64,000 nucleotides of DNA, from assembly GCA_963716725.1 (NCBI GenBank), contig CAVQUB010000013.1:352001-416000 (forward strand), in the 5' to 3' direction. The stretch is from an uncultured delta proteobacterium. Its GTDB lineage: Bacteria > Myxococcota_A > Polyangia > Polyangiales > Polyangiaceae. Under the pieces are notes generated by a model. The model made no database searches. It was not told the DNA's origin and saw only the letters and a list, made by a program, of their open reading frames with translations. This document shows positions 13,349 through 57,138 of this stretch, piece by piece (positions within the stretch are counted from its first letter, which is position 1; each line of letters opens with the position of its first letter). The position numbers were made by a program, and so were the translations under genes.

Positions 13349-13375
13349 CGCGAGGCTCGCCGCGAGCCGCCGACC

Positions 13376-14704
13376 ATGAGCTTCAGCGAGTTCCCTCCGC
13401 CCCCCGAGCTCGATCCGGGGCAGGATCTGCCGCACCTGCGCGTGCCCCCGCCGGGCCCGGCGTCGCGATCGTGGCTGGTGCGCTACGCGCACTCGGCGGC
13501 GCCCATGGGCCCGAAGCGCATGCCGGGGCAGCGCGCTTCGACGGTGGTGTTCGCTCGAGGCCTTGGCTGCAACATGATCGATGTCGACGGCAACCGCTAC
13601 GTGGACCTGGCGGCCGGGTTCGGCGCGCTCTTGTTGGGCCACTCGCCTCCGGCTATCCGCCGCGTGCTCGAGCTGCAGGCCAATCGCCTGTGGCAAGCCC
13701 TGGGCGACGTGCACCCCGCCGATGCCCGCGTCGCGCTCACTGAGCGCCTCGCGCGGCTGCATCCGAGCGGCGACGCCCAGGTCGTGCTCGGACAGTCGGG
13801 CGCCGACGCCATCACTGCCGCGCTCAAGACCGCCGCGCTCTTCACCGGCAAGGCGGGGGTGCTCGCTTTCAGCGGCGCGTATCACGGTCTGTCCTACGGA
13901 CCGCTCGCTGCGCTGGGGCTGCGTGATAGCTATCGTGCCCCCTTCTCGGCACAGCTCAATCCGTCCGTCCGTTTCGTGCCCTACCCTCACGACGAAGCCT
14001 CGCTCGACGCATCGATCGAACGCGCTCGCTTCGAGCTGGCTCGAGGTGACGTGGGAGCGGTGATCGTCGAGCCGATCTTGGGGCGCGGCGGCTGTGTCGT
14101 GCCTCCACCTGCGTTCATGGAACAGCTCGCCACGCTGGCGCGGGGGGCGTCGGCGCTGCTGATCGCGGATGAGATTTGGACCGGACTGGGGCGATGCGGG
14201 GCGTGGCTTCGTTCGTCCCGCGATGGTGTCATCGCCGACGTGATTTGCCTGGGCAAGGGCCTGGGCGGGGGCTTGCCCATCAGCGCGTGCATCGGCCGGC
14301 GGGAGGTGATGGCGGCCTGGTCTCGCGACGATGAAGTCGTCCACACCTCCACCTTTGCGGGCGCGCCCTTGGCTTGCGCCACGGCGCTCGCCACTCTGGA
14401 CGCGCTGTCGCGTGATCACCTGCCAGAGCGCGCCGCCGCCGTCGGGGAGCGCTTCGCCCATCGCCTGGCCGAGGTCGGAGTGAAAGTGCGGGGCGCGGGG
14501 CTGATGTTGGGCATCGAACTCGGAGGTCAGCCCGGCGCCGCCGTGAAGCTCGGGAAACGCCTGCTCGCCGCGGGCTACCTCACGAGCACCGGCGGCGGCG
14601 CGCGAGAGACGCTGGTTCTGACTCCTCCGCTCGTCATCGCCGAGACGTTGCTCGACGCCTTCGCCTCGGAGCTCGCGCTCTGCGCACCGGGGCTGCTTTC
14701 GTGA
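13376..14704 (+). CDS. Class III PLP-dependent aminotransferase
   Basis: DVDGNRYVD, AYHGLS, VEPILG, ADEIWTGLGR, LGKGLGGG, HTSTFAG. Confidence 0.9.
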   Translation: MSFSEFPPPPELDPGQDLPHLRVPPPGPASRSWLVRYAHSAAPMGPKRMPGQRASTVVFARGLGCNMIDVDGNRYVDLAAGFGALLLGHSPPAIRRVLELQANRLWQALGDVHPADARVALTERLARLHPSGDAQVVLGQSGADAITAALKTAALFTGKAGVLAFSGAYHGLSYGPLAALGLRDSYRAPFSAQLNPSVRFVPYPHDEASLDASIERARFELARGDVGAVIVEPILGRGGCVVPPPAFMEQLATLARGASALLIADEIWTGLGRCGAWLRSSRDGVIADVICLGKGLGGGLPISACIGRREVMAAWSRDDEVVHTSTFAGAPLACATALATLDALSRDHLPERAAAVGERFAHRLAEVGVKVRGAGLMLGIELGGQPGAAVKLGKRLLAAGYLTSTGGGARETLVLTPPLVIAETLLDAFASELALCAPGLLS

Positions 14705-15798
14705 GCCTAACGGACGAGTCCGACGCGCTGCACGCGCGTGTGCGCGCCTTCGCTCGGGGTCAGAGCCACGAAGGCTTCGACGCCCTCGCCCTCGAGATCG
14801 CGCAGTTTCAACGGCGGTGGTCGGCGGGCTTTCGGCGTCTGTGCGCGGCGCACGGCGGCTTCTCGAACGTCGACGAGATCCCTGCCGTTCCCAGCGATGC
14901 CTTTCGACTGGCTCGCGTCGCCGTGCACCCGCCCCAGCTCGACGTCGCGCGCTTCATGACCAGCGGCACGAGTGGCAGCAATCGCGGCGTCCACGCGCTG
15001 CGCACTCTCGAGACCTACTCGGAGGTCGCCCGCGCCTGGGGTTCGCGAGGGCTGTGCTCGCCGAAACAGCCGACACGCGTCGTGCTCGCGTTGGCTGAAG
15101 ACCCCGGTGATCCCGGCGAGTCGTCCCTCGGCCACATGATGCGCCTGTTCATGGGCTCCTTCGATGGGCGCGCGCGCGACGCTTGGCTGATAGGAGACGG
15201 CCGGGTGCGCCTGGAGGCCTGCGACCGCGCCCTGGGCGAGGCCCGCGCTCTCGGCGAGCCGCTCTTGGTCTTGGCCCCGGCCTTCGCCCTGGTTGCGCTG
15301 CTCGAAGCCCTGAACGGCCGGGTGATCGAGGCCCCGGCAGGCACGGTGGTGATGCAGACGGGCGGCTTCAAGGGACGCACGCGTGAGCTCGATCCGAATA
15401 CGCTGCGCGCCGAGGTCGCGCGAACGTTCTGCATTCCACCCGAGCAAGTCGTGGGCGAGTACGGCATGACCGAACTCTCGAGCCAGCTCTACGAGGGCAC
15501 GCTGCCGGGAGGTGAGCTCGCGGCGGAGCCGGGCGTGTACTTGCCGCCGCCGTGGCTCCGCGTCAGCGCCGTCGATCCGCTCACCTTGACCGAGGTCCCC
15601 GCAGGCGAGACGGGCCTCGCACGCTTCGTGGATCTCGCCAACGTCGACGGCGCGGTCGCCGTGCTCACCCAAGACCTCGTGCGCCGACGTGGCGAGGGCA
15701 TCGAGCTCGTCGGTCGCAAGCCGGGCGCGCCGCCACGCGGTTGCTCACTCGCCATCGAGGCGATGCTGAGTCAGCCCGTGAGCTGCTCGGACAAGTAG
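14701..15798 (+). CDS. LuxE-like acyl-protein synthetase
   Basis: FMTSGTSG, MQTGGFKGR, GEYGMTELSSQ, DLAN, LTQDL, C-terminal RGCS. Confidence 0.85.
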   Translation: MSLTDESDALHARVRAFARGQSHEGFDALALEIAQFQRRWSAGFRRLCAAHGGFSNVDEIPAVPSDAFRLARVAVHPPQLDVARFMTSGTSGSNRGVHALRTLETYSEVARAWGSRGLCSPKQPTRVVLALAEDPGDPGESSLGHMMRLFMGSFDGRARDAWLIGDGRVRLEACDRALGEARALGEPLLVLAPAFALVALLEALNGRVIEAPAGTVVMQTGGFKGRTRELDPNTLRAEVARTFCIPPEQVVGEYGMTELSSQLYEGTLPGGELAAEPGVYLPPPWLRVSAVDPLTLTEVPAGETGLARFVDLANVDGAVAVLTQDLVRRRGEGIELVGRKPGAPPRGCSLAIEAMLSQPVSCSDK

Positions 15799-16241
15799 AG
15801 CTCTTTTCCGATCTGGCGAGCAGCGTGCAGCTGCGCTTCGAGCCAGTCGATAGACTCTTCTTCTTCTTTCAAGATGGCCGCCAGAAGCTCACGTGTTCCG
15901 TGGTCGCCTTTGGCCACGCAGAGCGCGATGCCTTTGTTCAGGCGGGCCCGCGCCTCGACCTCGACGGCGAGATCGAGCTCGTGCTGCTCGATGGGATCTT
16001 CGCCGACGCGCACCGGGTACAAGCGCTGCATATTCGGGGTGCCGTCCAAGAACAGGATGCGTTCGATCACGGTGTCGGCATGCCGCATCTCTTCGATCGA
16101 CTCCTCGCGCTTCTTCTTGGCCAGCCGCGGATAGCCCCAGTTGCCGCACATCTTGGCGTGCACGAAGTACTGGTTGATGGCGGTCAGCTCTGCGCTGAGC
16201 AGGTCGTTCAAGAGCTCGATGACTTCGGGGTCGCCTTTCAC
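15771..16241 (-). CDS. bfr: Bacterioferritin
   Basis: GTG start after GGAGG; KGDPEVIELLN..ELTAINQYFVH, EEMRHAD, ERILFLDG. Confidence 0.95.
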   Translation of the reverse strand: MKGDPEVIELLNDLLSAELTAINQYFVHAKMCGNWGYPRLAKKKREESIEEMRHADTVIERILFLDGTPNMQRLYPVRVGEDPIEQHELDLAVEVEARARLNKGIALCVAKGDHGTRELLAAILKEEEESIDWLEAQLHAARQIGKELYLSEQLTG

Positions 16242-16338
16242 GCATTCCTCCAGGGGCGGAGCGTAGTGTCCCCGACCTCCAATGCGTACCGCCAATCCGA
16301 CGGGGCAAAATCACCTGGAAAATGGGGCCTGTCATTTT

Positions 16339-16357
16339 GATATTGAAAGTCATTTTC
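16339..16357. promoter_or_regulatory. Fur box between divergent bfr and bfd
   Basis: GATATTGAAAGTCATTTTC matches 15/19 of the consensus GATAATGATAATCATTATC; AT-rich island in high-GC DNA. Confidence 0.8.
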
Positions 16358-16386
16358 ATCTGGCTAGACTGAGCCTCGGAGGTCAC

Positions 16387-16596
16387 GTGCTGGTCTGTCA
16401 CTGCCACAAGGTCTGCCACCGAAGAGTCCTGGAAGCCTGCGACGCCGGCGCGGAGAGCGTGGAAGAGGTCGGCCGCGCCTGCGGGGCCGGCACCAGTTGC
16501 GGCGGCTGTCGCCCTCTGGTCGAGGATCTAATCCGCGTGCATCGCCGCGCGGCCGCCAGCTCCGGCGAACCCCAGAGCCACGCTCCGGCCGCCTGA
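16387..16596 (+). CDS. bfd: Bacterioferritin-associated [2Fe-2S] ferredoxin
   Basis: GTG after GGAGG; VCHCHKV...GAGTSCGGC. Confidence 0.9.
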   Translation: MLVCHCHKVCHRRVLEACDAGAESVEEVGRACGAGTSCGGCRPLVEDLIRVHRRAAASSGEPQSHAPAA

Positions 16597-16733
16597 TCAC
16601 GCGCCTGGGAGCTGCAAGCGCGGACAGCCCGCTCTCGGCGCTGCGCTCCCGGCTCGAAGGCGCGAGGTTGATCACGCAAGCTGGCACTGATGGTCGGCGC
16701 CACGTCATACTGCCCCGGCTCCCCGCCCGGCTC

Positions 16734-17789
16734 ATGTCCTCGCAAGCCCGCCTCAGCGCACTGATCAACGCCGCGAGGCGGCTCAGCGATCCCCGGGACC
16801 CGTTGGGTCACGCGGCCCGCGCCCAGCTGCCCTCGAGCACTGGGCTGTCGCCGGAGAACGTCGAACTCGCCCTGCGCGAGGTGCTGGAGACCGAGCCCAC
16901 CGAGAGCGAGATCCGCGCGCTGATCGCCTCGGCTCCACCGGCGCCCCGCGTGCACGTCCAGCTCGCGCCGAACGTGTTCACCGCTCCGCTCCGGGCCATC
17001 GCGCTGGCGCTGGCCCAATCGCCCAGCGTGTTCGTCCGTGCGTCGCGACGTGAGCCCGTGTTCGCTCGATTGCTCCAGCAAGCCTCCGCGGCCTTCGAGC
17101 TCGTCGAGTCGCTGGCGCCGGCGCCCGGCGATCACCTCTGGGCCTACGGCTCAGACGACACGCTGTCGAGCCTCCTTCGGCAGCTGCCGGCCGGCGTCGT
17201 TCTGCACGCTCACGGCCCGGGGTTCGGCATCGCGTTGATCGCCGCAGGCGCTTCCGGCGCGGCGAGTGCCTTGGCGAGCGACCTGGTTCCCTTCGACCAG
17301 CGCGGCTGCTTGAGCCCTCGCGTGGCGGTGGTCGTGGGTACGGCGGACGACGCGCGCAGCTTCGCACGAGAGGTCGCGCTGGAGCTGGATCGCGCCGCGT
17401 CGCGGGTGCCGCTCGGCCGCATCGATGACGATGAACGCGCGGCGTGTGCCCTGCTGCGCGAGACCATGAGCTACGCCGGTGAGGTCTTCGGTTGCGGCTC
17501 GGGCTGGGTCGCCGTGGACGAGGTCCCCCAGCGCTTGGTGCCCACGCCGGGCGCGCGGTCCTTGGTGGTGACACGCTCGGAATCGTCGCTCGACTGGCTT
17601 CAAGCCTTCGACGCCGTCATCACTTGCGTGGGGATCGCGGGGCCCGAGTCCCTCGTGCACGCGGCGGCGCAGGCGCTGCCCGGCGCACGACTGTGTCCGC
17701 TCGGCGGCATGCAGCGCCCGGCCTTCGACGGTCCGGTGGATCGGCGGCCCGGGTCGCGACCGCGACGCACCGGGGGGGATTCGAGCTAG
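16734..17789 (+). CDS. LuxC-like acyl-CoA reductase
   Basis: STGLSPENV, AYGSDDT, HGPGFG, FDQRGCLSP (catalytic Cys), LGGMQRP..DG. Confidence 0.8.
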   Translation: MSSQARLSALINAARRLSDPRDPLGHAARAQLPSSTGLSPENVELALREVLETEPTESEIRALIASAPPAPRVHVQLAPNVFTAPLRAIALALAQSPSVFVRASRREPVFARLLQQASAAFELVESLAPAPGDHLWAYGSDDTLSSLLRQLPAGVVLHAHGPGFGIALIAAGASGAASALASDLVPFDQRGCLSPRVAVVVGTADDARSFAREVALELDRAASRVPLGRIDDDERAACALLRETMSYAGEVFGCGSGWVAVDEVPQRLVPTPGARSLVVTRSESSLDWLQAFDAVITCVGIAGPESLVHAAAQALPGARLCPLGGMQRPAFDGPVDRRPGSRPRRTGGDSS

Positions 17790-20732: not shown

Positions 20733-22562
20733 ATGAGAACTCTGACTCGGGGATGGTTGGCGGGCGCCGGGGCGCTCGCGTTGGTGGCCGCAGGCGCGCT
20801 TTCGTGCAGCGATGGCGAAGAGGGAGGCGAGGCTGCGACCAGCTCATCGGGAGGCGGCGCGGGCGGGAGCGGCGGCGCGGCGGGAGCGGCCGGGCTCGCG
20901 GGGGCCGGCGCGTCGACCGGTCAAGTCTGCGGCAACGGGAAGCTCGAGGGCGAGGAGGAGTGCGACGACGGCAATTTCGTCGGGGCCGACGGCTGCGAAA
21001 ACAACTGCGACGTCACCTGCAAGTCGGCAGGCGACTGCGATGACGCGGATCCCTGCACGGGAACCGAGGCCTGCGGCGCCAACCACGCCTGCAGCGCCGG
21101 CACTCCGCTGTCGGACGGTACGGCCTGCGGGGAGGGGCTGGTCTGCGTGAACGGCAACTGCGCCACGCCTCAATGCGGCGACGGCCAGAAGCAGATCGGC
21201 GAGGAGTGCGACGACGGCAACGCCCTGAGTGGAGACGGCTGCGACTTCTGCAAATTCTCGTGCGTGTCGACGGACGCCCTTCGAGATTGCACGAAGAGCG
21301 GTGACTCCTGCGCCGGAACGAACGCCTGTGACGACGTCAAGCACACCTGCACCGCCGGCGCGAAGCTCAGCGAGGGCGCGGCCTGTGGCGCCGGCACCGG
21401 CAAGTGCCTGGGCGGCATCTGCACGCTCCTCAGCTGCGGCAACGCGCAACTCGACTCCGGCGAAGAGTGCGACCCACCGGCAGCCGGCACTTGCAGCGCG
21501 CAATGCCAGAAGGTCGTCACGCCCGTCTGCGGCAATGGGACCATCGAGCCACCGGAGCACTGCGACGATCAGGCCACGGCAAACTTGGACGGCTGCGGCG
21601 CAAAGTGCGCCTACGAGATGGTGCTCCGCATGATCGATCTCGACATTCGCGGCGGCCCGGCCCCGAGCTTCTGCAGCGTCACCAAGAACCAGCTGGGGAA
21701 TGTGGCGCTGACACCGACCGCGCTCAGCACCCTGAACAACGATTTGCAGAAGGGCATCGACAGCGGCGGCACGAACATCATGCTGCAGCTGCTCGGCCTC
21801 GACGAACTCACCGGCACTGCAGATGCCTCCATCGAGATCGGCGTGCTCTCGGGCGAACTCGACAAGGCCAAGGGCACGTGGCCAATCGACGGCACGAACC
21901 CCATCGACTGGTGGTTCTCCATCGACCAAAAGGGGGTCGACGCCAGCGGGCTTCCGACGGGCAAGATCGGCGCAGGATCGATCCTCGCGAAGGTGCTCAC
22001 CGCGGGGCCCAGCACCATCGACCTCGCGCTGACGCTCGGTGGCAGCGCCGCGGTGCTCGGAATGCGTGACGCAAAATTGCGCGCTGCCGCCAGCGGCGCA
22101 CCGGACGTCCCCGCACCTCCGCCGGCCTCCCTCGCCGCAGGGCTCGCCGTATTCGGCGAGCTGCTGTCGAACCAAAGTAGCCAGGGCTTGTGCGGCAACG
22201 TGACCGTGAGCTCGCTCGCCAAGATCCCGATCCCCGAGACGCTCACGGTCGGCTTCGCCGCCTGCCAGGAGTGCCCCGGATCCAAGAAGTACAAGTTCTG
22301 CGGCAAGGACCAGCCCGTCAGCGACAGCTGCAATTCGTTGCTCGATGCGCTGGTCGGCGGTTGCAAGGGCTTCAACTGCGCCCTGACCACCGTCAACCCC
22401 ACGCAACCCGACGTGGCCAAGCCCGCGGGAAAGCTCACGCTGCTCGAGAATCAAGGGGCGCTGAACAAGATCCCGAGCGCCGACGCGACCGACAACCTCG
22501 ACGCGTACTCGGCGTTCCTGTCGTTCCGCGCGCGCCGCGCGCACATCACCGCGAAGCACTGA
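20733..22562 (+). CDS. Lipoprotein with myxobacterial Cys-rich (DUF4215-type) repeats
   Basis: Lipobox ALSC, Gly linker, repeated CGNG..E.CDDGN...DGC units. Confidence 0.85.
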   Translation: MRTLTRGWLAGAGALALVAAGALSCSDGEEGGEAATSSSGGGAGGSGGAAGAAGLAGAGASTGQVCGNGKLEGEEECDDGNFVGADGCENNCDVTCKSAGDCDDADPCTGTEACGANHACSAGTPLSDGTACGEGLVCVNGNCATPQCGDGQKQIGEECDDGNALSGDGCDFCKFSCVSTDALRDCTKSGDSCAGTNACDDVKHTCTAGAKLSEGAACGAGTGKCLGGICTLLSCGNAQLDSGEECDPPAAGTCSAQCQKVVTPVCGNGTIEPPEHCDDQATANLDGCGAKCAYEMVLRMIDLDIRGGPAPSFCSVTKNQLGNVALTPTALSTLNNDLQKGIDSGGTNIMLQLLGLDELTGTADASIEIGVLSGELDKAKGTWPIDGTNPIDWWFSIDQKGVDASGLPTGKIGAGSILAKVLTAGPSTIDLALTLGGSAAVLGMRDAKLRAAASGAPDVPAPPPASLAAGLAVFGELLSNQSSQGLCGNVTVSSLAKIPIPETLTVGFAACQECPGSKKYKFCGKDQPVSDSCNSLLDALVGGCKGFNCALTTVNPTQPDVAKPAGKLTLLENQGALNKIPSADATDNLDAYSAFLSFRARRAHITAKH

Positions 22563-23894: not shown

Positions 23895-24653
23895 CTACCC
23901 GGCGCTGATCCGCACGACGCCGTCGTCGATGCGTTGCTGGAGCGCAACCTGAGTCGCTCGGCGCGCCGCACCGAGCGCGCGAACCCCGTCTTGGAGACGG
24001 AAGGGTCCCGAACGAGGCAAGCCGTCGAGCACCAACGCCACGAGACCCGGGCGCTTCGGCGGCACCAGGCTCTTGTCGCCCTTGCCGCGCCAGGGCGAGC
24101 GCGACGCGAGGTGATGGTGGAGCACGCGCCGACCGCTGGGCACACCCTCGAGACCGGGGCGGTCCAGGATGCCGCCATCGAGCAAGGGGCGCCCGCCGTG
24201 CCAGGTGGGCTGAAACAACAAAGGCACGGTGCAGCTCGCTTGGATCGCGGGTGCGATCTTTCCGTGGTTGAGCACCCGCGTCGATCGTGAGTACAGATCG
24301 AAGACCGACACGGCCAGCGGCACGCGGCACCCCGAGAAGTGTTCGACCCGCAGCAGGGAGTCGATGCGCGCGCGAAAGCGTCGACCGCGAAGCAACCCCA
24401 GCCCCGGCCAGGGGTCCCAGAAGTCCTCCCGCCGGAGACGCGTGAGCTCGACTTCGAGGGCCGGCGCGTCGATGCCCGAAGCCCAGAGTCCGGCCACCAG
24501 CGCACCGGCGCTCGAGCCCGCGACCTCTGCGGGAAGGACGCCAGCCTCCTCGAGAGCCGCGAGCATGCCGGTGTGCGCAAAGAATCCGAAGAATCCGCTG
24601 GACATCGCCAGCGAAAACGGACCTTCGGCGAGCCAGTCGCGGAGCGTGATCAT
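23895..24653 (-). CDS. Patatin-like phospholipase
   Basis: SSGFFGFFAH, GSSAG nucleophile motif, DGG. Confidence 0.9.
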   Translation of the reverse strand: MITLRDWLAEGPFSLAMSSGFFGFFAHTGMLAALEEAGVLPAEVAGSSAGALVAGLWASGIDAPALEVELTRLRREDFWDPWPGLGLLRGRRFRARIDSLLRVEHFSGCRVPLAVSVFDLYSRSTRVLNHGKIAPAIQASCTVPLLFQPTWHGGRPLLDGGILDRPGLEGVPSGRRVLHHHLASRSPWRGKGDKSLVPPKRPGLVALVLDGLPRSGPFRLQDGVRALGAARRATQVALQQRIDDGVVRISAG

Positions 24654-24744: not shown

Positions 24745-25200
24745 ATGCTGAAGAAACTGCTGTTCACCACCTCGCCGCGCAACCTCAATCTCGCGCTGCT
24801 CTTGCTCCGCCTCGGCTTCGGCGCCTCGATGGCGCTTGCACATGGTCTCGGCAAGGTGAAAGACCTCGCTGGTTTCACGGCGGGCGTGGCCGCTCGCGGG
24901 GTTCCGATTCCGGAGCTCCTGGGTCCGGCGGCCGCGCTCAGCGAGCTGGTTGGTGGCCTCTTGCTCGCGCTCGGCTTGCTCACACGCCCCGCAGCCGGGT
25001 TCGTGCTGGCAACCATGGCGGTGGCAGCCTTCCACGTGCATGGCAACGACCCCTTCGCGCGCAAGGAGCTCGCGCTCGCCCACGGCCTGGTCGCTCTGGC
25101 CATCGCCATCGGAGGGCCAGGACGCTTCAGCTTGGACGCACGGCTATTCGGTCAACCCGGCTTGCCGTCGACCCGCGGCGCCAGCAGCATCGGCACGTAG
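24745..25200 (+). CDS. DoxX family membrane protein
   Basis: LLLLRLGFG..HGLGK, ELVGGLLLALGLLTR, GPGRFSLD. Confidence 0.9.
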   Translation: MLKKLLFTTSPRNLNLALLLLRLGFGASMALAHGLGKVKDLAGFTAGVAARGVPIPELLGPAAALSELVGGLLLALGLLTRPAAGFVLATMAVAAFHVHGNDPFARKELALAHGLVALAIAIGGPGRFSLDARLFGQPGLPSTRGASSIGT

Positions 25201-26366
25201 ACGACCAGATAGGCGAGGAACGCCAGAGCGAAGAGCACACCCGCGGTCGTCATCGAGTGCCGGTACGCGACGTTGCCCCCGAGCGGACCGAACACCCGCA
25301 GCAGCGCCGCCACGACCACTGCACCGAAGGCGACGCTGATCACGGGCTTCACCGCCAGCATGCGCCCGGTGTGCCCCAGGGACACTCTCGCCATCATGCC
25401 GAGGGTCAGCGAGCCGATGGCGCCGGCGGTGAACGCATGGAGGGCTGCGCTCGCGGTGAACGCAGGAGTGACCGCCATGCTGGCGCGCAGCAGAAAGCCC
25501 AGGGCGATGAACCCGTGCCCCAGGTGCAAGATCCACAGCAGCGGACTGCGGAAGGTGTGCAGCGTGCCCCAGGTCAGACTCCGGGCCAGCACCAAAATGC
25601 CGGCCAGCGCGGCCAGCGCGCCCACGATTCGTTCGTCGAACGAGGCGAGATCCGCCAGCGCCGCCGCGACGACCCCGGCGATCGCCGCGGTATCGAGCCG
25701 AGGCTGATTGCGAATGGTCTGCTGATCCGTCGCGTTCCTGGTGAACATCGGCACGACGCGGGCCGTCATCACCACGATCATGGCGATGATCACATAGGTC
25801 GCGAGCCACGCCCCTTTGCGCGACCCCTCAGCCCAGATGCCGAGCGATCCGAGATGCATGGCTAGGTTGCCCAAGAAGAGCAGCGAAAGCATGACGACGA
25901 ACTGATAGTTTCGTTGATTCCGCGCGGTGACGATCGGCCTCGCGCACGCCCATGCCAAGAGTGGGAGAAAGGCGAGGTCGACCGCGGCGGGCACGAAGCG
26001 CGGCAAGCGATCCGCCACCAGCGGTGCGACGCGGCCGGCGAGCCACACCGCTGCCAGAACCGCCAAGAGCCTTCCAGTGGCGGTCTCCCGCGAGGTCCAG
26101 TTGCCGATCGCGGTGAGCAGAAACCCAGCGATCACCGCCAGGGCGAAGCCAAAGAGCATCTCGTGCGCGTGCCAGAAGGTAGCGCCGAAATACGCTCCCG
26201 GATTCATCCCGCCCCGCAGCGCGAGCACCCAGATCGGCATCACGACCGCGGCCTGAGCCGCTGCGAGCAAGAAGAATGGGCGAAAGCCCTTGGCAAGGAT
26301 TGCGGGCTTGACCAGCGGAGTTGCCGGCCCCGACTGGAGGAGGGAACGTTGCACCACGGGCCGCAT
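25152..26366 (-). CDS. nnrS: NnrS family protein (nitrosative stress)
   Basis: GFRPFFL, WHAHEMLFGF, GFLLTAIGNWT, RVSLGHTGR, PRVDGKPG. Confidence 0.95.
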   Translation of the reverse strand: MRPVVQRSLLQSGPATPLVKPAILAKGFRPFFLLAAAQAAVVMPIWVLALRGGMNPGAYFGATFWHAHEMLFGFALAVIAGFLLTAIGNWTSRETATGRLLAVLAAVWLAGRVAPLVADRLPRFVPAAVDLAFLPLLAWACARPIVTARNQRNYQFVVMLSLLFLGNLAMHLGSLGIWAEGSRKGAWLATYVIIAMIVVMTARVVPMFTRNATDQQTIRNQPRLDTAAIAGVVAAALADLASFDERIVGALAALAGILVLARSLTWGTLHTFRSPLLWILHLGHGFIALGFLLRASMAVTPAFTASAALHAFTAGAIGSLTLGMMARVSLGHTGRMLAVKPVISVAFGAVVVAALLRVFGPLGGNVAYRHSMTTAGVLFALAFLAYLVVYVPMLLAPRVDGKPG

Positions 26367-26411: not shown

Positions 26412-28280
26412 TCAGTCCATCACCCGGAGCCGCAGCTTGCCATCGACCGACGACTCCTTGGGGGTGACCACGGAGAGCGGGTCATCGGACAGCGGAAGTC
26501 GTTGGTTTTTGGCGTACACCGGGTGCTTGCCGTGCTTGCGGGACCACTCGGCGACGCTGGCGGTGCGGTACATCTTCTCGACGACCTGGCGCCAGCCGAC
26601 CCCGGTGTTGTAGGCGCAAAACGGAATCTCCCCCAGCTGGGTGCCGTAGGGGATGATGCACATCTCGGTGCGGCGGAAGTCGTAGTTGAAGAGATCTTGG
26701 AAGTGCATGCCGGCGACGAACAAGAAGCGCCAATCGAACGCGCTCGCGTCGCCCTCGGTGGCGCCGACGCGGCCACCCCGCGCGCCCATTTGGCTCAGCA
26801 CCTGACGCACGAGGGTCGACAACTCGAAACCCTCCGGTGCGCGCTCGGGACGGAAGTTGCGCAGCAGCGCCAGTCCCACCTCCGCCAACGTGCGCTTGGG
26901 TCCGAGCCCGGCGTCGGCCACCAAGACCAAGTCGCGGAGCAGGCGCGGGAGATCCATGATCTCTGCTACGGGCACCATCTGCTTGGTGCGCTTGTTGACC
27001 AACAGCACGGTGCCGATGCCGCAGTCGGGGTGGCAGCCGCATTTGAGTGAGCCAAACTCGGCGTCGGCGCCCAGCGTCAGGTCGACCACGTCGCTGAAGG
27101 GATTCATGGCCGAGAGGGGGAACCAATCGCGGAGCGGCTCGGTCGCGCCGAGTTGCTCTTGGAGATCTCGGGCGAGATGACTCAGGGTGTAGCGCTGTGC
27201 GCGTCGTGTCGCGTCGTCGACGTCTTCGTCGCGTCCGGTGAAGCTGATGGGCTGGAACGACACGACCGTCACTTTGTCGGCATTTTCGATGGCAAAGCGC
27301 ACGATGCGCCCGACCTCTGCGTGGTTGACCCCGCGCACGACGGTCACCACCAACACCACGTCGATGCCGGCGGCCGCGAGGTTCTCGATGGCGCGCAGCT
27401 TCACGTCGTAGAGGTTGTCGATCTTGCGATGCGAGTTTGCTTCGTTGCCGACACCGTCGAACTGGAGGTAGGCGAGCCGGAGACCTGCGGCCTTGGCCTG
27501 CCGGCAGAACTCCGGATCTTGCGCGAAGCGGATGCCGTTGGTAGCGCACTGCACGCAAAAATATCCGAGGTCTCGCGCGTAGCGGACGCTGTCGATGAAC
27601 GCTGGGTGCAGCGTGGGCTCGCCGCCTGAAAACTGCACGCTGAGCTGACGCTTTGGCTTCACCGTGAGCGCGTCGTCCAATATGCGGCGCACTTCGTCGA
27701 AGGAGAGCTCGTGCACGTAGCCAACCTGGTTGGCGTCCATGAAGCACGGCTCGCACATCATGTTGCAGCGGTTGGTGAGGTCGACAGTGAGCACCGCGCC
27801 GCGACCGTACTTCACACTCGAGGTGCCGTGGTCACGCAGGCTGGTCTTGGGCGCCAGGTAGTCGCGCCCGGGAAACAAGCTCTCGATGCGCCTCAGGAAC
27901 TCGGCGTCTACGCTCAGCACCTCTTCGAAGCGCCCGTGCGCGGGGCACGTCTTGACCATCCAGACCTCACCGTCGCGCTCGACGATGTCGGCGGGGATCT
28001 CGCCGGGATGGTTGTGCAGGACGTCCAGGGGCCTCTGGCCCGAGACAACCGCCTTGCGCACCTCTCGGACGCAGGTCGGGCAGAGCGAGTCGGTGCGGCG
28101 GGGGAAACCGAGCGCAGGGAACGAGCGCTCGCCGGCGCGGATCAACGGCGCGGGGGCCCAGTTCGGCGTGAGCGAGTCGCCGCGCGCGCGGGCGTTGTAA
28201 GCGAGGACCAAGGGCCAGAGTCGGTTCGCGGCGGCGGCGGCCAGGGTCGCGGCGCGACGACTGAAAGTTGGAGCGGGCAT
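26412..28280 (-). CDS. Radical SAM enzyme, Tes/GDGT-MAS (MJ0619) family
   Basis: SLCPTC, KTCPAHG, DLTNRCNMMCEPCF, QFSGGEPT, YLQFDG, CHPDCG, MHFQD.FNYD, CIIPY..IPFCAYN. Confidence 0.8.
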   Translation of the reverse strand: MPAPTFSRRAATLAAAAANRLWPLVLAYNARARGDSLTPNWAPAPLIRAGERSFPALGFPRRTDSLCPTCVREVRKAVVSGQRPLDVLHNHPGEIPADIVERDGEVWMVKTCPAHGRFEEVLSVDAEFLRRIESLFPGRDYLAPKTSLRDHGTSSVKYGRGAVLTVDLTNRCNMMCEPCFMDANQVGYVHELSFDEVRRILDDALTVKPKRQLSVQFSGGEPTLHPAFIDSVRYARDLGYFCVQCATNGIRFAQDPEFCRQAKAAGLRLAYLQFDGVGNEANSHRKIDNLYDVKLRAIENLAAAGIDVVLVVTVVRGVNHAEVGRIVRFAIENADKVTVVSFQPISFTGRDEDVDDATRRAQRYTLSHLARDLQEQLGATEPLRDWFPLSAMNPFSDVVDLTLGADAEFGSLKCGCHPDCGIGTVLLVNKRTKQMVPVAEIMDLPRLLRDLVLVADAGLGPKRTLAEVGLALLRNFRPERAPEGFELSTLVRQVLSQMGARGGRVGATEGDASAFDWRFLFVAGMHFQDLFNYDFRRTEMCIIPYGTQLGEIPFCAYNTGVGWRQVVEKMYRTASVAEWSRKHGKHPVYAKNQRLPLSDDPLSVVTPKESSVDGKLRLRVMD

Positions 28281-28431
28281 CGAGCGGCGAACAATAGCAG
28301 ACGGGGCAGCGGCGGCGGGAGGACCGCGCCGGGTCGGAGCGCGCGGCTGGATCCCGCGGCTGATCCGCGCGGCCGGTTCCACATCGCCGGTGATTCCGAT
28401 AGCCTGCACGTGCCCAGTTCAAGGAGGGACC

Positions 28432-30129: not shown

Positions 30130-30594
30130 TCAGACTCCGATGCCCTCCGCCCCGAGCTCGATGAACAAGCCTTGGGCTTCGGCGTAGGGCGCGCCGTCCG
30201 CGGCGAGCAAGTGCCCGCGGGTGTGCACCTTGCGGCCTTCGACCCGGTCGATGAACGCTTCGATCAAGACGTCGCTCCCGAGGGGCAGCATGCGGCGAAA
30301 ACTGACCTCTATCTTTGCGGCGAGCACCCGGTGGCCGTTCAGCCACCCGACCTTGCCGATGGCGTCGTCGAGCACCGACGCCATGCTGCCGCCGTGCGCG
30401 TGACCGGGCGGACCTTCACACCACGGCCCGAACCACACGCGCCCGACCAGCGCGTCGTCGTTGTCGCGGCGGAAGTAAGCGACGCGCATGCGCAGGTCGC
30501 CTTCTTGCCCATGAACCCAGGACCGACCGGATTTGGCGGTGATCGGCGAGAGCGGAGACCAGCCGGTTTCGGCGACGACGGGCGGCGGCTGCAT
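30130..30594 (-). CDS. PaaI/hotdog-fold thioesterase
   Basis: EGPPGHAHGG..ASVLDDAIG, GRKV. Confidence 0.85.
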   Translation of the reverse strand: MQPPPVVAETGWSPLSPITAKSGRSWVHGQEGDLRMRVAYFRRDNDDALVGRVWFGPWCEGPPGHAHGGSMASVLDDAIGKVGWLNGHRVLAAKIEVSFRRMLPLGSDVLIEAFIDRVEGRKVHTRGHLLAADGAPYAEAQGLFIELGAEGIGV

Positions 30595-30601
30595 TCGAAA
30601 C

Positions 30602-31144
30602 CTAGCGTGCTCCCGCGCTGTTCCAACCGCCGTCGAGCTCGGCAACACCTTCGTGGACGTGCAGGCGCCGCTTCACGTCGAGGCCTCCGGAGAAGCCGCC
30701 GAGGGATCCGTCGGAGGCCACCACCCGGTGGCAGGGCACCAAGATGGGCAGCGGGTTTTTGGCCATTGCGGCGCCGACCGCCCGCGCAGCGCCCGGCTTG
30801 CCCACCCGCTTGGCGAGGTCGCCGTAGGTCGTGAGCTGACCGAAGCTCACGCGCATGAGCTGCCGGAGCACTCGGCCCTGGAACTCGCCGGTCAAGCGGA
30901 AGTCCGTGGCCACGCCGAAGGTGCGACGGCGACCGCGGAAGTACTCCCCGATCTCGGTCGTGGCGCGCAGGCGCGCGCGCCTTTCGAGCACGACGTCATC
31001 ACCGCCAGCCGCTCGCAAGCGTTCGAGCAGGGCAGCCGCATCGGGCTCTCCGAACTCGATGGCAACGACGCCGCGATCACTCTCGACAACGGTGAGCGGG
31101 CCCACGGGTGAGCGCAAGGTGGCGTAGCGGAATTTGACAGCCAT
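30602..31144 (-). CDS. ogt: Methylated-DNA-protein-cysteine methyltransferase
   Basis: SPVG, TYGDLA, ARAVG, NP...LVPCHRVV. Confidence 0.93.
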   Translation of the reverse strand: MAVKFRYATLRSPVGPLTVVESDRGVVAIEFGEPDAAALLERLRAAGGDDVVLERRARLRATTEIGEYFRGRRRTFGVATDFRLTGEFQGRVLRQLMRVSFGQLTTYGDLAKRVGKPGAARAVGAAMAKNPLPILVPCHRVVASDGSLGGFSGGLDVKRRLHVHEGVAELDGGWNSAGAR

Positions 31145-35432: not shown

Positions 35433-36857
35433 TCAGCACGCGCGGTGGCCCGGCCCCGGGAAGATCTTGCCCGGGTTGAGCAGGCCGCGGGGATCGAAGA
35501 CGCGTTTGATGTCGCGCTGCAGCTCGATCAGCTCGCCCGACTGCTCCAAATGCAGGTAGGGCGCCTTCAGGACGCCGATCCCGTGCTCCCCGCTGAGCGT
35601 GCCCCGCAGCGCCACCACGTCGCAGAACAACTGCTCGATGGCGCGCTCGACGGCGGGCGCCTCGTCCTGATGATCCCAGAGAAAGTTCACGTGAAGGTTG
35701 CCATCGCCCGCGTGCCCGTAGGTGAGATGTCGCACGCCGAGCCCCTCGCAGCTCTTTGCCACTCGGTCGAGCAGCTCCGGGATTTGTTGGCGGGGCACGA
35801 CGACGTCCTCGCTCAGCTTGAAGCGCGTCAGCTTGCGCACCGCTCGACTCATCTCGCGACGCGCCGCCCAGAGCTTCTCCCGCTGGCCCGCGTCCTGGGC
35901 AACCAGGACTTCGATGGCTCCCTCGCAGGCATTGCCCACCCGTTCGGCCTGCTCCTCGGTCTCGCGGGGCTCACCGTCCACCTCGATCAGGAGCAGCGCG
36001 CCCGCTTGCTCGCGAAACTCGTTCCCGGCGGCGCGCATGGCATCCAGCGTGTGTCCGTCCAAGAGCTCGATGCAGCGCGGCACGAGCCCGGCGCCCGTCA
36101 TGGCCGTGACGGCGACGCTGGCGGCGCGCACGTCGGAGAAGAGCGCGAGCAAGGTCATCACGCTCGGCGGCTTCGGTACCAGGCGCAGGGTGATATCGCC
36201 AAACACCGCCAGGGTTCCCTCGCTGCCGACCAGCAACGCCGTCACGTCGTAGCCGGTCACTCCTTTCACGGTGCGCCTTCCCGGTGTGATGCGCTGCCCG
36301 CCGATCAAGAAGGCCTCGACACCGAGCACGTACTCGCGGGTGACGCCGTATTTGAAAGCTCGCGGGCCGCCGGCGTTCTCCGCGACGTTGCCGCCGAGCG
36401 CGCAGCTCTCGACGCTGTTGGGATCCGGTGGGTAGAAGAGCCCGTCGCGTTCGACGGCTGCGTGCAACTCACCGAGCACCAGGCCGGGTTCGACGACCGC
36501 GATCATTTCTCGCCGATCGATCTCCTTGATCTGGTTCATGCCCAGCGTGCACAAGACGATGCCCCCGGAGCGCGGAACCGCACCTCCGGTGCGACCGGTG
36601 CCGGCGGCGCGCGGCGTGATGGGGACCTCCGCTTCCCGCGCCACGGCCAGGGCCTTCGAGATGTCGCTCTGGGACTCCGCCCGTACGACGGCGAAGGGCA
36701 CCGCCCCCTCGGCCTCGGACTCGTCACGTCCGAAGCCGGCGCAGGCGTCGGGGTCGGTCAGGACCTTCGAGGGGCCCAGCGTGCGCTCGAGGAGCCGCAG
36801 CGCTTTTTCCCGCGCAGCGGCGGAGGGAACTGGCAGCACGGCAGTGGTGGTGCTCAT
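35433..36857 (-). CDS. FAD-linked oxidase, GlcD/D-lactate dehydrogenase family
   Basis: YPPDP, GGNVAENAGG, KYGVT, GSEGTL, HAGDGNLH, SGEHGIG, LNPGK. Confidence 0.9.
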   Translation of the reverse strand: MSTTTAVLPVPSAAAREKALRLLERTLGPSKVLTDPDACAGFGRDESEAEGAVPFAVVRAESQSDISKALAVAREAEVPITPRAAGTGRTGGAVPRSGGIVLCTLGMNQIKEIDRREMIAVVEPGLVLGELHAAVERDGLFYPPDPNSVESCALGGNVAENAGGPRAFKYGVTREYVLGVEAFLIGGQRITPGRRTVKGVTGYDVTALLVGSEGTLAVFGDITLRLVPKPPSVMTLLALFSDVRAASVAVTAMTGAGLVPRCIELLDGHTLDAMRAAGNEFREQAGALLLIEVDGEPRETEEQAERVGNACEGAIEVLVAQDAGQREKLWAARREMSRAVRKLTRFKLSEDVVVPRQQIPELLDRVAKSCEGLGVRHLTYGHAGDGNLHVNFLWDHQDEAPAVERAIEQLFCDVVALRGTLSGEHGIGVLKAPYLHLEQSGELIELQRDIKRVFDPRGLLNPGKIFPGPGHRAC

Positions 36858-36981
36858 GAAATACAGGATAGCTCGGCTCGGGCCTCTCGATTTCTCGGAC
36901 TTTCTGGCGCTACGCGCGATCACCTTGACGACGGCGGCGCCACGGGTACCTTCTCGGCCTTCCGCAGGCTGACAAGCCACC

Positions 36982-37069
36982 GGAGAGGTGACCGAGTGGC
37001 CGAAGGTACCCGCTTGCTAAGCGGGCGTAGGTCAAAAGCCTACCGAGGGTTCGAATCCCTCCCTCTCCG
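36982..37069 (+). tRNA. tRNA-Ser (GCT), long variable arm, CCA not encoded
   Basis: Acceptor stem GGAGAGG/CCTCTCC+G; anticodon arm CCCGC-TTGCTAA-GCGGG; variable arm; T arm GAGGG-TTCGAAT-CCCTC. Confidence 0.97.
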
Positions 37070-38465: not shown

Positions 38466-39125
38466 GTGCGGTTCGAGGCGCGGGTGAGGCACGTGCGGCG
38501 GGGGACCAGGGCGCTGGCGGCGCTGGTGCTGGGCTTCGTTTCGGCGGGTTGCGGCAGCGACGAGGGCGGCGAACCGGGCGCTCAGGGTGGCGGCGGCGGC
38601 CTCGGCTCTTCCTGCCAGCTGCCCTTCCTCGGCGACGCCTCGAAGCCCATCGAGATCAAGGTCACGGCGCGGGGTGCCGATCTGGTCTCGAAAGAAATCT
38701 CCGAGGGCGCCCAGGTCCCGTTGATCCTCCCGCCGCAGGGGGGCCGAGTGATGTTCATCGGCGTCTTGGCCACGAACCTCTCGCCTTGCAGCGTCGAGAT
38801 CAACGGAACGCTCCGCGACCTCGGCTCGAACGAGACCCGGGTCGACGGGCGCAAGACCAACCTGGCGACCACGGGGGACGGCTGGGGGTCGAGCGTCGAC
38901 ACGGACATCTCGACGTTTTCGATGATCCCGACCTGTCCGAACCAATGGGCGTCGACCGATGTGTTCGGTCACACCTTCGAGCTCGAGCTCAGCATCACCG
39001 CGAAGAACGGCCAGATGGCTTCGAAGAAGCTGAACGTCACCCCGGTTTGCGGCGAACCGGCAAACGAGGCCGAGTGCAAGTGCCAGTGCACCATGGGATA
39101 CACGCTCGGGACCACGTGCAGTTGA
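38466..39125 (+). CDS. Hypothetical lipoprotein
   Basis: Lipobox SAGC, Gly linker, PPQGG motif, Cys-rich end. Confidence 0.65.
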   Translation: MRFEARVRHVRRGTRALAALVLGFVSAGCGSDEGGEPGAQGGGGGLGSSCQLPFLGDASKPIEIKVTARGADLVSKEISEGAQVPLILPPQGGRVMFIGVLATNLSPCSVEINGTLRDLGSNETRVDGRKTNLATTGDGWGSSVDTDISTFSMIPTCPNQWASTDVFGHTFELELSITAKNGQMASKKLNVTPVCGEPANEAECKCQCTMGYTLGTTCS

Positions 39126-39144
39126 GGCAACGAGGCAGGTAACG

Positions 39145-40434
39145 ATGACCACTCGATGGACGAAGGCAATGACCCTGGCGCTGGCGGCGACCGTGCTGTC
39201 GGTGGGCGCCTGCGGCGGTGACGACGCGGCCCAGGCAAAGCCCGGGCCGGACGCGGGGACCGACTCCGCTTCGGACGCAGCGAACTGCATCGACACCGGC
39301 CAGCACCCCATGCCGCGCACGGAGGCTTTCTCGGTGTTCGACGCCAAGCGCCAGCGCGTAGTGATCTTCGGCGGCGATCTCGGCGTGCCGGTGCAATGCA
39401 ACCCCGCACCCAAGCCCACCGGCGAACTGTGGCTCTACGACGTCGCCTGCAAGAGCTTCTCGCAAGCCAGCCCGAGCGGCGGACCGGGACCCCGAACGCG
39501 CGGCCTGGCCGTGCACGATCCGGAGGGCGATCGCTTGATCGTGTTCGGCGGTCGCTACCGCGAGGCGTCATCGGGCCCCTACACGGTCTACAACGAAGCT
39601 TGGGCGCTCGATCTCGAGACTCTCGCCTGGCAGCAGATCGCCACCACCGGCACCGCGCCATCGGGGCGCAGTAGCGTGGCCGGCGTGTACAGCCCGGCCA
39701 CGAAGGAGCTCGTCCTCTTCGGGGGCAACGCCAGCACCAGCGGGCTCTCGTTCACGCCGCTCGACGATGTGTGGGCCTTGAATCTCGCCACGGGCGCGTG
39801 GCGTGAAATCGTGGCGACGGGACCAAAGCCGCCCGCGCGGCTGTTTCATTCCGCGGCGCTCGATCCGGCAACAGGTCGGCTTTACGTCTACGCCGGCGGA
39901 GGGGCCGGAGCCTTCCAGGGTCCATTCATGACCGACCTGTGGTCCTTCGACCTCGCCACGAGCACCTGGGCGGAGGAGAGCGCGGGCACGGCCGGGGCCC
40001 CCCTGGGACGCATTCACTCTTCCCTGACCTTCGACTCGAAACAGAATCGACTCGTGGTGTTCGGCGGTCACGACGACGGCGCCGTCGGCAACAACAACGA
40101 CACGTGGTCCTTCGACCCTGCGAGCAAGAAGTGGACGGAGCTGGTGCCCGCCGAGACCGTGAAGACCCCGGCGCCGCAGTTCTGCTTGTTCCCGCCCGAT
40201 TTCACCGTGCCGAACCTGCAAGCGCCGGATCGCCGCTCGGCCCACGCCGCTGTCCTCGATGAAGCGAGCGGTCGCTGGCTCGTCTACGGTGGCAAGACGG
40301 ACTGCGGCAACGTCGATGACGTGTGGTCCTTCGACCTGACCACGAACCAGTGGCAGACCGAGGTGCCGTCGACGGTGGGTGAGGCCTGCGTCCGCGGCAA
40401 GAATGCGGGGCAGTGCAGCACGCTGTGCATTTAG
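39145..40434 (+). CDS. Kelch-repeat beta-propeller lipoprotein
   Basis: Lipobox VGAC; repeated (V/L)FGG...D.W..D....W units. Confidence 0.85.
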   Translation: MTTRWTKAMTLALAATVLSVGACGGDDAAQAKPGPDAGTDSASDAANCIDTGQHPMPRTEAFSVFDAKRQRVVIFGGDLGVPVQCNPAPKPTGELWLYDVACKSFSQASPSGGPGPRTRGLAVHDPEGDRLIVFGGRYREASSGPYTVYNEAWALDLETLAWQQIATTGTAPSGRSSVAGVYSPATKELVLFGGNASTSGLSFTPLDDVWALNLATGAWREIVATGPKPPARLFHSAALDPATGRLYVYAGGGAGAFQGPFMTDLWSFDLATSTWAEESAGTAGAPLGRIHSSLTFDSKQNRLVVFGGHDDGAVGNNNDTWSFDPASKKWTELVPAETVKTPAPQFCLFPPDFTVPNLQAPDRRSAHAAVLDEASGRWLVYGGKTDCGNVDDVWSFDLTTNQWQTEVPSTVGEACVRGKNAGQCSTLCI

Positions 40435-49767: not shown

Positions 49768-49881
49768 ACCGCGCGCAGCGAAGAGACCGACGACCGAGTC
49801 CGGCGGCGCGCCCCAATCCGACCGAGGCCGCTTCAGAACGCCGCCCTCGCAGCCCAGGGCAAAACGCCATAGCATCGGAGG

Positions 49882-57135: not shown

Positions 57136-57138
57136 GGC

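Follow-up and report, generated by a model that had tools for sequence, protein, structure and literature searches.

Does a gene for an enzyme of the radical S-adenosylmethionine (SAM) kind in an uncultured member of the Polyangiaceae encode a tetraether lipid synthase (Tes), that is, an enzyme that couples lipid tails into membrane-spanning lipids, or a relative with a different task? The question is raised by a 64,000-nucleotide stretch of contig CAVQUB010000013.1 (assembly GCA_963716725.1, positions 352,001 to 416,000), here called the window, whose minus strand carries at 26412..28280 a reading frame for 622 amino acids (aa). By sequence and by its predicted model, the encoded protein is a radical SAM enzyme of the fold of Tes and of its validated archaeal representative GDGT-MAS (MJ0619). 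As judged from the alignment with this enzyme, it has lost the N-terminal auxiliary iron-sulfur cluster and has kept the residues of SAM cleavage as well as the cluster that holds the substrate radical. We give even chances to the reading that the protein is a three-cofactor coupler of Tes type, acting on lipid tails and giving a membrane-spanning product.

Family, fold and metal sites

The Tes-like open reading frame (ORF) is real, and its similarity to the Tes family is far above chance. The frame extends over 26412..28409 on the minus strand, with 665 aa if read from a GTG, and contains an internal ATG at 28280 that yields 622 aa. The closest homologues have 615-629 aa at a query coverage of 100%, and one database protein of 622 aa is 99% identical. 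Since these lengths fit 622 aa, we place the start at the ATG (28280) and not at the GTG (28409). The G+C content of the gene is 0.85 at third (GC3) and 0.47 at second (GC2) codon positions, a pattern also seen in other real genes of the window (67% G+C, with values of 64-71%). A preliminary description of the sequence had assumed a myxobacterial host. This is plausible, as those best matches that carry organism names all belong to Polyangiaceae or Myxococcota (67-99% identity to the 622-aa protein).

In Pfam, residues 60-122 match the zinc ribbon PF23545 (Zn_ribbon_HMPTM; HMPTM/MJ0619 zinc-ribbon, E 9e-17) and residues 168-330 (27291-27779) the radical SAM domain PF04055 (E 5e-21). The latter match has 76.1 bits against a gathering score of 29.5 and includes the CX3CX2C motif, which places the protein in the radical SAM superfamily. 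The best NCBIfam model is the equivalog NF045702 (tetraether lipid synthase Tes), aligned over positions 2-484 of 486 with E 1e-104. The score of 350.7 bits is below the curated cutoff of 450 bits, and the protein is therefore no Tes equivalog. The second model, the TrsS radical SAM (seleno)protein NF045646, has its N-terminal half in common with the window protein; the match is partial (residues 94-379, only the first ~300 model positions) and fails the cutoff of 490 bits with 228.8 bits. A sequence search of the PDB returned GDGT-MAS (7TOL/7TOM) as the sole full-length relative (E 2e-74, 254 bits, residues 94-583 for 7TOL).

A model computed with AlphaFold2 from an alignment of 9 sequences is of moderate confidence (predicted TM-score, pTM, 0.79; mean predicted local distance difference test, pLDDT, 71.5), and its low-confidence stretches are mainly the cofactor loops, a predicted linker (499-511) and the C-terminal tail. 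Foldseek aligned this model to 7TOM (E 7e-32) and 7TOL (E 5e-31) over 541-557 columns at 30-31% identity, with target-normalised TM-scores of 0.82 and 0.85, respectively. The predicted model thus has the four-domain fold of GDGT-MAS along its whole chain, and other PDB matches cover the radical SAM core alone (~230 columns). The C-terminal helical sub-domain (residues 421-480) is modelled at pLDDT 81-88, and its helices are amphipathic. The order of domains, namely rubredoxin-like site, radical SAM (RS) core and C-terminal cluster domain, is likewise that of GDGT-MAS and of the Tes model NF045702. The preliminary description had assigned the protein to the Tes/GDGT-MAS family: the fold, the Pfam domains, the end-to-end NCBIfam alignment and the PDB match bear this out, whereas equivalog status does not hold and one of the four metallocofactor sites is gone.

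The four metallocofactors of GDGT-MAS are described by Lloyd et al. (PMC9433317; statements taken from this paper and from PMC8941075, PMC13159169, PMC13023045 and PMC13459092 refer to the available passages of these sources). A rubredoxin-type iron is bound by C9X2C12X20C33X2H36, and the ligands of an N-terminal auxiliary [4Fe-4S] cluster are C73, C77 and C80 as well as a conserved His. CX3CX2C binds the RS cluster, and Gln268, Ser271 and Arg275 close over 5'-deoxyadenosine (5'-dAH)/SAM. The C-terminal auxiliary cluster forms an S-C intermediate, with Met439 as labile ligand and Tyr459 nearby; both residues are completely conserved among 1000 archaeal homologues (PMC9433317). Residues were mapped with a phmmer alignment to the GDGT-MAS chain, in which a tag offset of 20 residues puts M439 and Y459 on CMHF and IHY. 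Conservation was counted over the 74 rows of the core clade described below (72 loci, the window protein and the database representative P0122). The gene and its sites are:

26412..28280, minus strand: Tes-like radical SAM gene, 622 aa, stop codon at 26412-26414
28101..28280, minus strand: N-terminal extension, residues 1-60, no counterpart in canonical Tes rows
27912..28100, minus strand: rubredoxin-like CX2C...CX2H site (PF23545), C67, C70, C112 and H115, ligands in 74 of 74 rows
27777..27845, minus strand: loop TSLRDHGTSSVKYGRGAVLTVDL in place of the ligand motif of the N-terminal [4Fe-4S] cluster, from alignment and conservation
27744..27767, minus strand: radical SAM motif CX3CX2C inside PF04055, C172, C176 and C179, 74 of 74 rows
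27231..27257, minus strand: FQPISFTGR loop, invariant Q343, S346 and R350, aligned with Gln268, Ser271 and Arg275
27018..27041, minus strand: CGCHPDCG, beginning of the region of the C-terminal auxiliary cluster, C414, C416, H417 and C420 in 74 of 74 rows
26607..26711, minus strand: GMHFQD...EMCIIPY...IPFCAYN block, with M525 at the place of the labile Met439 and Y545 at that of Tyr459

By sequence, the rubredoxin-like site has all its ligands, C33 and H36 of GDGT-MAS corresponding to C112 and H115. The site is enlarged: 41 residues lie between the two ligand pairs versus 20 in GDGT-MAS, an insert of ~21 residues. The spacing is 41-46 in all 73 of 73 clade rows versus 20-27 in 27 of 29 rows from the canonical side of the family (see below). 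The protein has ~60 N-terminal residues more than GDGT-MAS, and the first ligand Cys stands at a median position of 83 in clade ORFs versus 17 in canonical rows. This extension consists of a predicted helix (6-31) followed by a conserved PxW..PL..PxLGxPRxTD, of which P39, W41, P45, P55, G58, P60 and R61 are found in 99-100% of the 74 rows.

The site that is gone is the N-terminal auxiliary cluster. In the phmmer alignment, the GDGT-MAS segment CPYDCGLCPNH faces a gap and then DHGTSSVK of the window protein; C73 falls on a 5-residue gap, and C77, C80 and H83 correspond to H151, S154 and K157. With these residues at the ligand positions the cluster cannot form, and the cysteine motif (CPxxCGxCxxH) is found neither in the window protein nor in any of the 79 rows of its lineage. 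The preliminary description had noted that the archaeal CPxxCGxC is replaced by DHGTSSVKYGRG, and the alignment to GDGT-MAS, where this segment carries the ligands of the cluster, agrees. The replacement loop is itself conserved over the 74 rows (H151, G152, R160 and G161 100%; G159 99%; S154 97%; Y158 86%; K157 80%).

The RS cluster and the SAM loop are retained in the alignment, the three cysteines in all rows and Q343, S346 and R350 without variation, although the RS motif reads NRCNMMCxPCFM versus NRCNLxCPxCFA in canonical sequences. In the C-terminal region, the archaeal HQHCG has one Cys, which is matched by C420. All clade rows have a further Cys, C414, and a Cys at its column occurs in 1 of 30 canonical representatives (P0156). 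M525, C541, Y545 and C555 are each kept in 72 of 74 rows, so that the labile Met and the Tyr of the C-terminal auxiliary cluster both have their counterparts by alignment. C420, C541 and C555 are the probable ligands of this cluster, an assignment based on family-wide Cys conservation, as the ligands are not named in the available passages of PMC9433317. All motifs that had been listed in the preliminary description are present, namely SLCPTC at residue 65 of the 622-aa protein, KTCPAHG at 110, DHGTSSVKYGRG at 150, NRCNMMCEPC at 170, CGCHPDCG at 414, GMHFQD at 524, EMCIIPY at 539 and IPFCAYN at 552. Structure prediction, proposed there as a check on the cluster ligands, gave the full fold; in the alignment, the C-terminal cluster residues are in place and the N-terminal ligands absent.

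A bacterial lineage and its carriers

The variant is not peculiar to the organism of the window. An exhaustive search of representatives clustered at 50% identity gave 534 proteins at E <= 1e-30, and a scan of one genome per species gave at least 597 loci with relatives of the window protein, i.e. a large clade (locus, carrier and neighbour counts refer to the best 80 of these loci). We aligned the window protein with 49 listed representatives of 470-720 residues, which split in two kinds. The canonical kind has ~31-40% identity to the window protein and carries CPxxCGxC and NRCNLxCPxCFA; the closer kind carries HxHG-[ST]S..-K[YF]GRGAVLTV and NRCNMMCxPCFM.

The split was recovered in two trees, both of them quick searches with several long branches and with support values from SH-aLRT only. 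The first (108 rows: 73 loci, the window protein and 34 representatives, with ORFs chosen by BLAST) omits the fragmentary loci L044, L046, L048, L052, L056, L057 and L069. It places 79 rows on the window side of a branch of length 0.66 with SH-aLRT 100. The second tree (54 rows, LG+C20 mixture model with posterior mean site frequencies, PMSF) has the same split, again with SH-aLRT 100. Within the first tree, the window protein nests among 8 Polyangiaceae rows with a support of 99. Scores against 7TOL are 459 and 502 bits for canonical representatives versus 302 for a basal member of the window lineage and 254 for the window protein, and hence the validated enzyme groups with the canonical side. 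The curated cutoff of NF045702 is reached by 13 of 17 canonical representatives versus none of 10 proteins of the window lineage; the nine members other than the window protein score 220-414 bits. These comparisons of sequences describe a distinct and well-separated bacterial lineage of the Tes family with conserved additions of its own, and the window protein is an ordinary member of it. Comparison by profile and phylogeny, which had also been proposed as a check, thus confirmed the match to the Tes family but put the protein below the cutoff and into a separate bacterial lineage.

Loss of the N-terminal cluster is not restricted to one side of the tree. P0188 and P0247, on the canonical side, are without the full cysteine motif, P0188 nonetheless scoring 584 bits on the Tes model; the cluster therefore seems to have been lost independently more than once. 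P0175 carries CPKECGLC. In a sister sub-branch (P0126, P0130, P0152) the RS motif is kept, and the C-terminal cluster region has lost its cysteines in part or altogether, a further loss of a cofactor in the family. Two further representatives are consistent with the intein-containing Tes form NF045703: P0264 has a large insertion within CX3CX2C, and P0226 has 1045 aa.

The carriers include Polyangiaceae, Labilithrix and other Myxococcota as well as many Acidobacteriota, namely Pyrinomonadaceae/Blastocatellia, Vicinamibacterales, Bryobacterales (including a metagenome-assembled genome, MAG, of Solibacter usitatus), Terriglobales, Thermoanaerobaculia and Holophagales. Acidimicrobiia, Gemmatimonadota, Thermodesulfobacteriota and a few Pseudomonadota also carry the gene. 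The only cultured strain is Polyangium fumosum DSM 14668 (L015). Cultured members of four of the acidobacterial groups (Pyrinomonadaceae/Blastocatellia, Vicinamibacterales, Bryobacterales/Solibacter and Terriglobales) make iso-diabolic acid. With a Pyrinomonadaceae protein as query, all relatives recovered were uncultured and at least 91% identical. One Pyrinomonadaceae cluster has 686 member sequences, and the gene is hence abundant in the soils sampled. The Pyrinomonadaceae versions (P0272-P0391) have 679-681 aa, ~55 residues more than the myxobacterial ones.

Bacterial Tes homologues as such are catalogued. Zeng et al. 2022 (PMC8941075) list 456 of them and propose a role in the synthesis of glycerol dialkyl glycerol tetraethers of the branched type (brGDGTs), with candidates in Acidobacteria. 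The statement of the preliminary description that Tes homologues occur in Acidobacteria linked to brGDGTs thus has its counterpart in that paper, where they are discussed as synthesis candidates. Two Tes homologues of S. usitatus were likewise proposed for brGDGT synthesis (Halamka et al., PMC10087280). The supplementary tree of Zeng et al. includes sce6491 of Sorangium cellulosum So ce56 and a protein of Chondromyces crocatus (PMC8941075), and a myxobacterial Tes homologue is therefore not new. In a search for a link between the clade and sce6491, an orthologue from a Sorangium MAG matched only MAG or unnamed proteins. Homologues of the kind found in Koribacter versatilis and S. usitatus resemble the window protein in that they are bacterial and proposed, though unproven, makers of branched membrane-spanning lipids. 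We infer that they belong to the canonical group because of their 40-42% identity to archaeal Tes (PMC8941075); canonical representatives differ from the window protein in keeping CPxxCGxC and in their higher scores to 7TOL. No description of a bacterial lineage without the N-terminal cluster was found in a non-exhaustive literature search that included passages of a 2026 review. What may be new is that a large catalogued branch of bacterial Tes is a three-cofactor variant with conserved additions that falls below the curated Tes cutoff.

Genes around the locus

The following genes lie near the Tes-like gene:

25152..26366, minus strand: gene for an NnrS-family membrane protein (PF05940, E 4e-106), 45 nucleotides downstream of the Tes-like gene
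23895-24653, minus strand: patatin-like phospholipase, less than 4 kb from the Tes-like gene, in 0 of 80 related loci
30130-30648, minus strand: 4HBT-type thioesterase, less than 4 kb from the Tes-like gene, in 0 of 80 related loci
13349-17789, both strands: class-III aminotransferase, LuxE-like acyl-protein synthetase, ferritin-like protein and LuxC-like acyl-CoA reductase, 9-12 kb from the Tes-like gene

The Tes-like gene and the NnrS gene are on one strand, nothing like a terminator was found between them, and in the window both are probably co-transcribed. An NnrS match within 6 kb is found in 1 of the 80 related loci, there at a distance of ~5.5 kb, so that the pairing looks like a local arrangement and not like a conserved partnership. 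An all-against-all clustering of ORFs within 6 kb gave no neighbour family conserved in more than 16 of 81 neighbourhoods, the commonest being a generic ABC ATPase on either strand. Upstream, 7 loci and the window share a metallophosphoesterase, and immediately downstream 5-6 loci (L001-L005, L034) have LuxC-like, LuxE-like and class-III aminotransferase genes. Both arrangements are confined to the closest Polyangiaceae and may reflect mere recent common ancestry. Since this trio is directly downstream in close relatives, the NnrS-DoxX-patatin-DUF4215 block of the window genome looks interposed. The nearby acyl-activating and acyl-reducing genes of LuxE/LuxC type are at most a weak hint at lipid metabolism, as these links are shallow.

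The FAD-linked oxidase at 35433-37016 was tried as an alkyl-dihydroxyacetone phosphate synthase for ether lipids and found no support, its best model being GlcD with a score below the cutoff (383 versus 568 bits). At 54616-57138 (minus strand), an SCP2 lipid-carrier domain forms the N-terminus of an 840-aa fusion that also contains the E1 alpha and beta parts of a 2-oxoacid dehydrogenase and may have to do with the supply of branched-chain fatty-acid primers. Large repeat proteins of secreted type are encoded on the plus strand at 20733-22562, 39034-40434 and 49873-53085, with DUF4215 repeats, a Kelch propeller, and FG-GAP and CARDB domains.

Proposed chemistry and its rivals

The fold, the pattern of cofactor ligands, the separation of the lineage and its conservation, as demonstrated above, are the basis from which a lipid substrate, C-C coupling, the product and an electron path can be proposed. 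As the apparatus of SAM cleavage and the C-terminal cluster are retained, we argue for a chemistry like that of GDGT-MAS, with two rounds of H-abstraction by SAM-derived radicals. The enzyme would use three metal sites instead of four: a rubredoxin-like iron and two [4Fe-4S] clusters, one of them the radical SAM cluster and the other the auxiliary cluster of the C-terminal domain. If it works as GDGT-MAS does, SAM would be cleaved at the RS cluster, and the 5'-deoxyadenosyl radical would take a hydrogen from a lipid chain at its terminal carbon. A sulfide of the C-terminal cluster, which has the labile Met ligand, would then hold the resulting substrate radical until a second SAM-derived radical on a second chain attacks to form a C(sp3)-C(sp3) bond. 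GDGT-MAS acts on archaeol lipids, whereas the host of the window protein is bacterial, with ester or ether acyl lipids. The likely substrates would be acyl or alkyl tails of bacterial glycerolipids, and the product a diabolic or iso-diabolic membrane-spanning or macrocyclic lipid. Electrons would have to reach the RS cluster without the N-terminal cluster at the surface, via the enlarged rubredoxin-like domain or another donor. The loss of that cluster together with the enlargement of the rubredoxin-like domain suggests a rewired electron supply and not a loss of function. A second bacterial comparison is Mss of Thermotoga and Thermoanaerobacter, likewise a radical SAM enzyme that joins two fatty-acyl tails, for which a Tes-like mechanism with auxiliary clusters has been postulated (PMC13459092). 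Mss differs in that its relation to Tes is described as remote and that it is found in anaerobes and was active in Escherichia coli only under anaerobic conditions (PMC13159169).

The main rival explanation, which we consider possible but doubtful, retains the fold and the radical chemistry and assumes another task: a different hydrophobic substrate or a different reaction (intramolecular macrocyclisation, a cross-link, a C-S bond, a step in secondary-metabolite or quinone synthesis) without membrane-spanning lipids. It would account for the long, fully supported branch between the lineage and canonical Tes, for the failure of 10 of 10 tested members to reach the equivalog cutoff, and for the lineage-specific elements (HG.S..KYGRG loop, invariant Cys414, rubredoxin insert, N-terminal extension). 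The C-terminal cysteine loss in the sister sub-branch around P0126 shows functional drift, and the carrier taxa include groups with cultured relatives that lack iso-diabolic acid. However, all GDGT-MAS mechanism residues named in the available text of PMC9433317 are retained, as is the whole length of the C-terminal domain, which in GDGT-MAS lies beside the lipid pockets. Moreover, neither a biosynthetic gene cluster nor a precursor-peptide-like partner is conserved alongside in the 81 neighbourhoods.

The adjacent NnrS gene offers another explanation. NnrS is a membrane protein that contains haem and copper and has a link to nitric-oxide stress, and the Tes-like enzyme might work with it, for example in its maturation or repair. 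Such a role, which the close spacing on one strand would favour, is very unlikely: with a match in 1 of 80 related loci NnrS was rejected as a functional partner, a LuxC-like gene holds the downstream place in the closest relatives, and the one paper found to mention both NnrS and radical SAM concerns, by its listing, an unrelated regulon. Many databases name such proteins 7,8-dihydro-6-hydroxymethylpterin dimethyltransferase, as do the Pfam name Zn_ribbon_HMPTM and the JGI name on many close homologues. We hardly credit this activity, since the name stems from the first annotation of MJ0619, for which Lloyd et al. could not corroborate it and showed lipid coupling (PMC9433317); the names on homologues are transferred annotations, not tests. 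It is just as improbable that a Tes gene came from archaea by horizontal transfer and survives here as an inactive remnant, as the lost cofactor site might suggest. The gene is not decaying, as its GC3 is like that of host genes and the replacement loop is strongly conserved; ligands and catalytic residues are kept in 72-74 of 74 rows across phyla, and intact homologues number in the thousands.

A number of observations weigh against a coupler of lipid tails that makes membrane-spanning lipids. The score on NF045702 is below the cutoff, and the identity to the validated enzyme is 30-31%. Tes homologues were found in 3 of 14 acidobacterial producers of iso-diabolic acid (Sahonero-Canavesi et al., PMC13159169; thresholds E <= 1e-50 and at least 30% identity), from which these authors conclude that other enzymes or another pathway make this acid. 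Table S21 of the same paper includes Sporomusa ovata, with a Tes homologue but without a membrane-spanning lipid, as well as cultured SD23 and SD8 strains without iso-diabolic acid. The clade is present in MAGs of Thermoanaerobaculia and Holophagales (L020, L023, L025, L055). None of the sources consulted demonstrates activity of a bacterial Tes homologue; a 2025 study of the Black Sea calls the activity of bacterial Tes unconfirmed (PMC11868695), and Chen et al. 2025 report, according to the text that cites them in PMC13023045, a co-occurrence. In listings and abstracts on diabolic acid and myxobacteria, membrane-spanning lipids are not reported from myxobacteria. Finally, no lipid gene is a conserved neighbour, the maximum for any family being 16 of 81 neighbourhoods.

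A more specific proposal, which we regard as speculative and rather unlikely, is that the lineage is the aerobic bacterial tail-coupling enzyme sought in brGDGT research. Its products would then be membrane-spanning lipids of iso-diabolic or diabolic type in soil Acidobacteriota and, hitherto unnoticed, in Polyangiaceae, and the loss of the N-terminal cluster with enlargement of the rubredoxin-like domain would be an adaptation to oxygen. Published screens would undercount the lineage, as it lies right at cut-offs of ~30% identity to archaeal Tes.

Branched GDGTs serve widely as palaeothermometers, and their producers and synthase are still debated. In the literature consulted, Mss occurs in anaerobes only, and most producers of iso-diabolic acid have no canonical Tes homologue. 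A large and conserved lineage of Tes fold in aerobic soil phyla, whose members fall under the customary homology thresholds, is an evident candidate, and its cultured carrier Polyangium fumosum DSM 14668 makes testing practical. For enzymology, a Tes that naturally lacks the N-terminal cluster would reveal whether C(sp3)-C(sp3) coupling can do without it. Should the lineage do something else, it would caution against equating a metagenomic 'Tes homologue' with the potential to make tetraethers.

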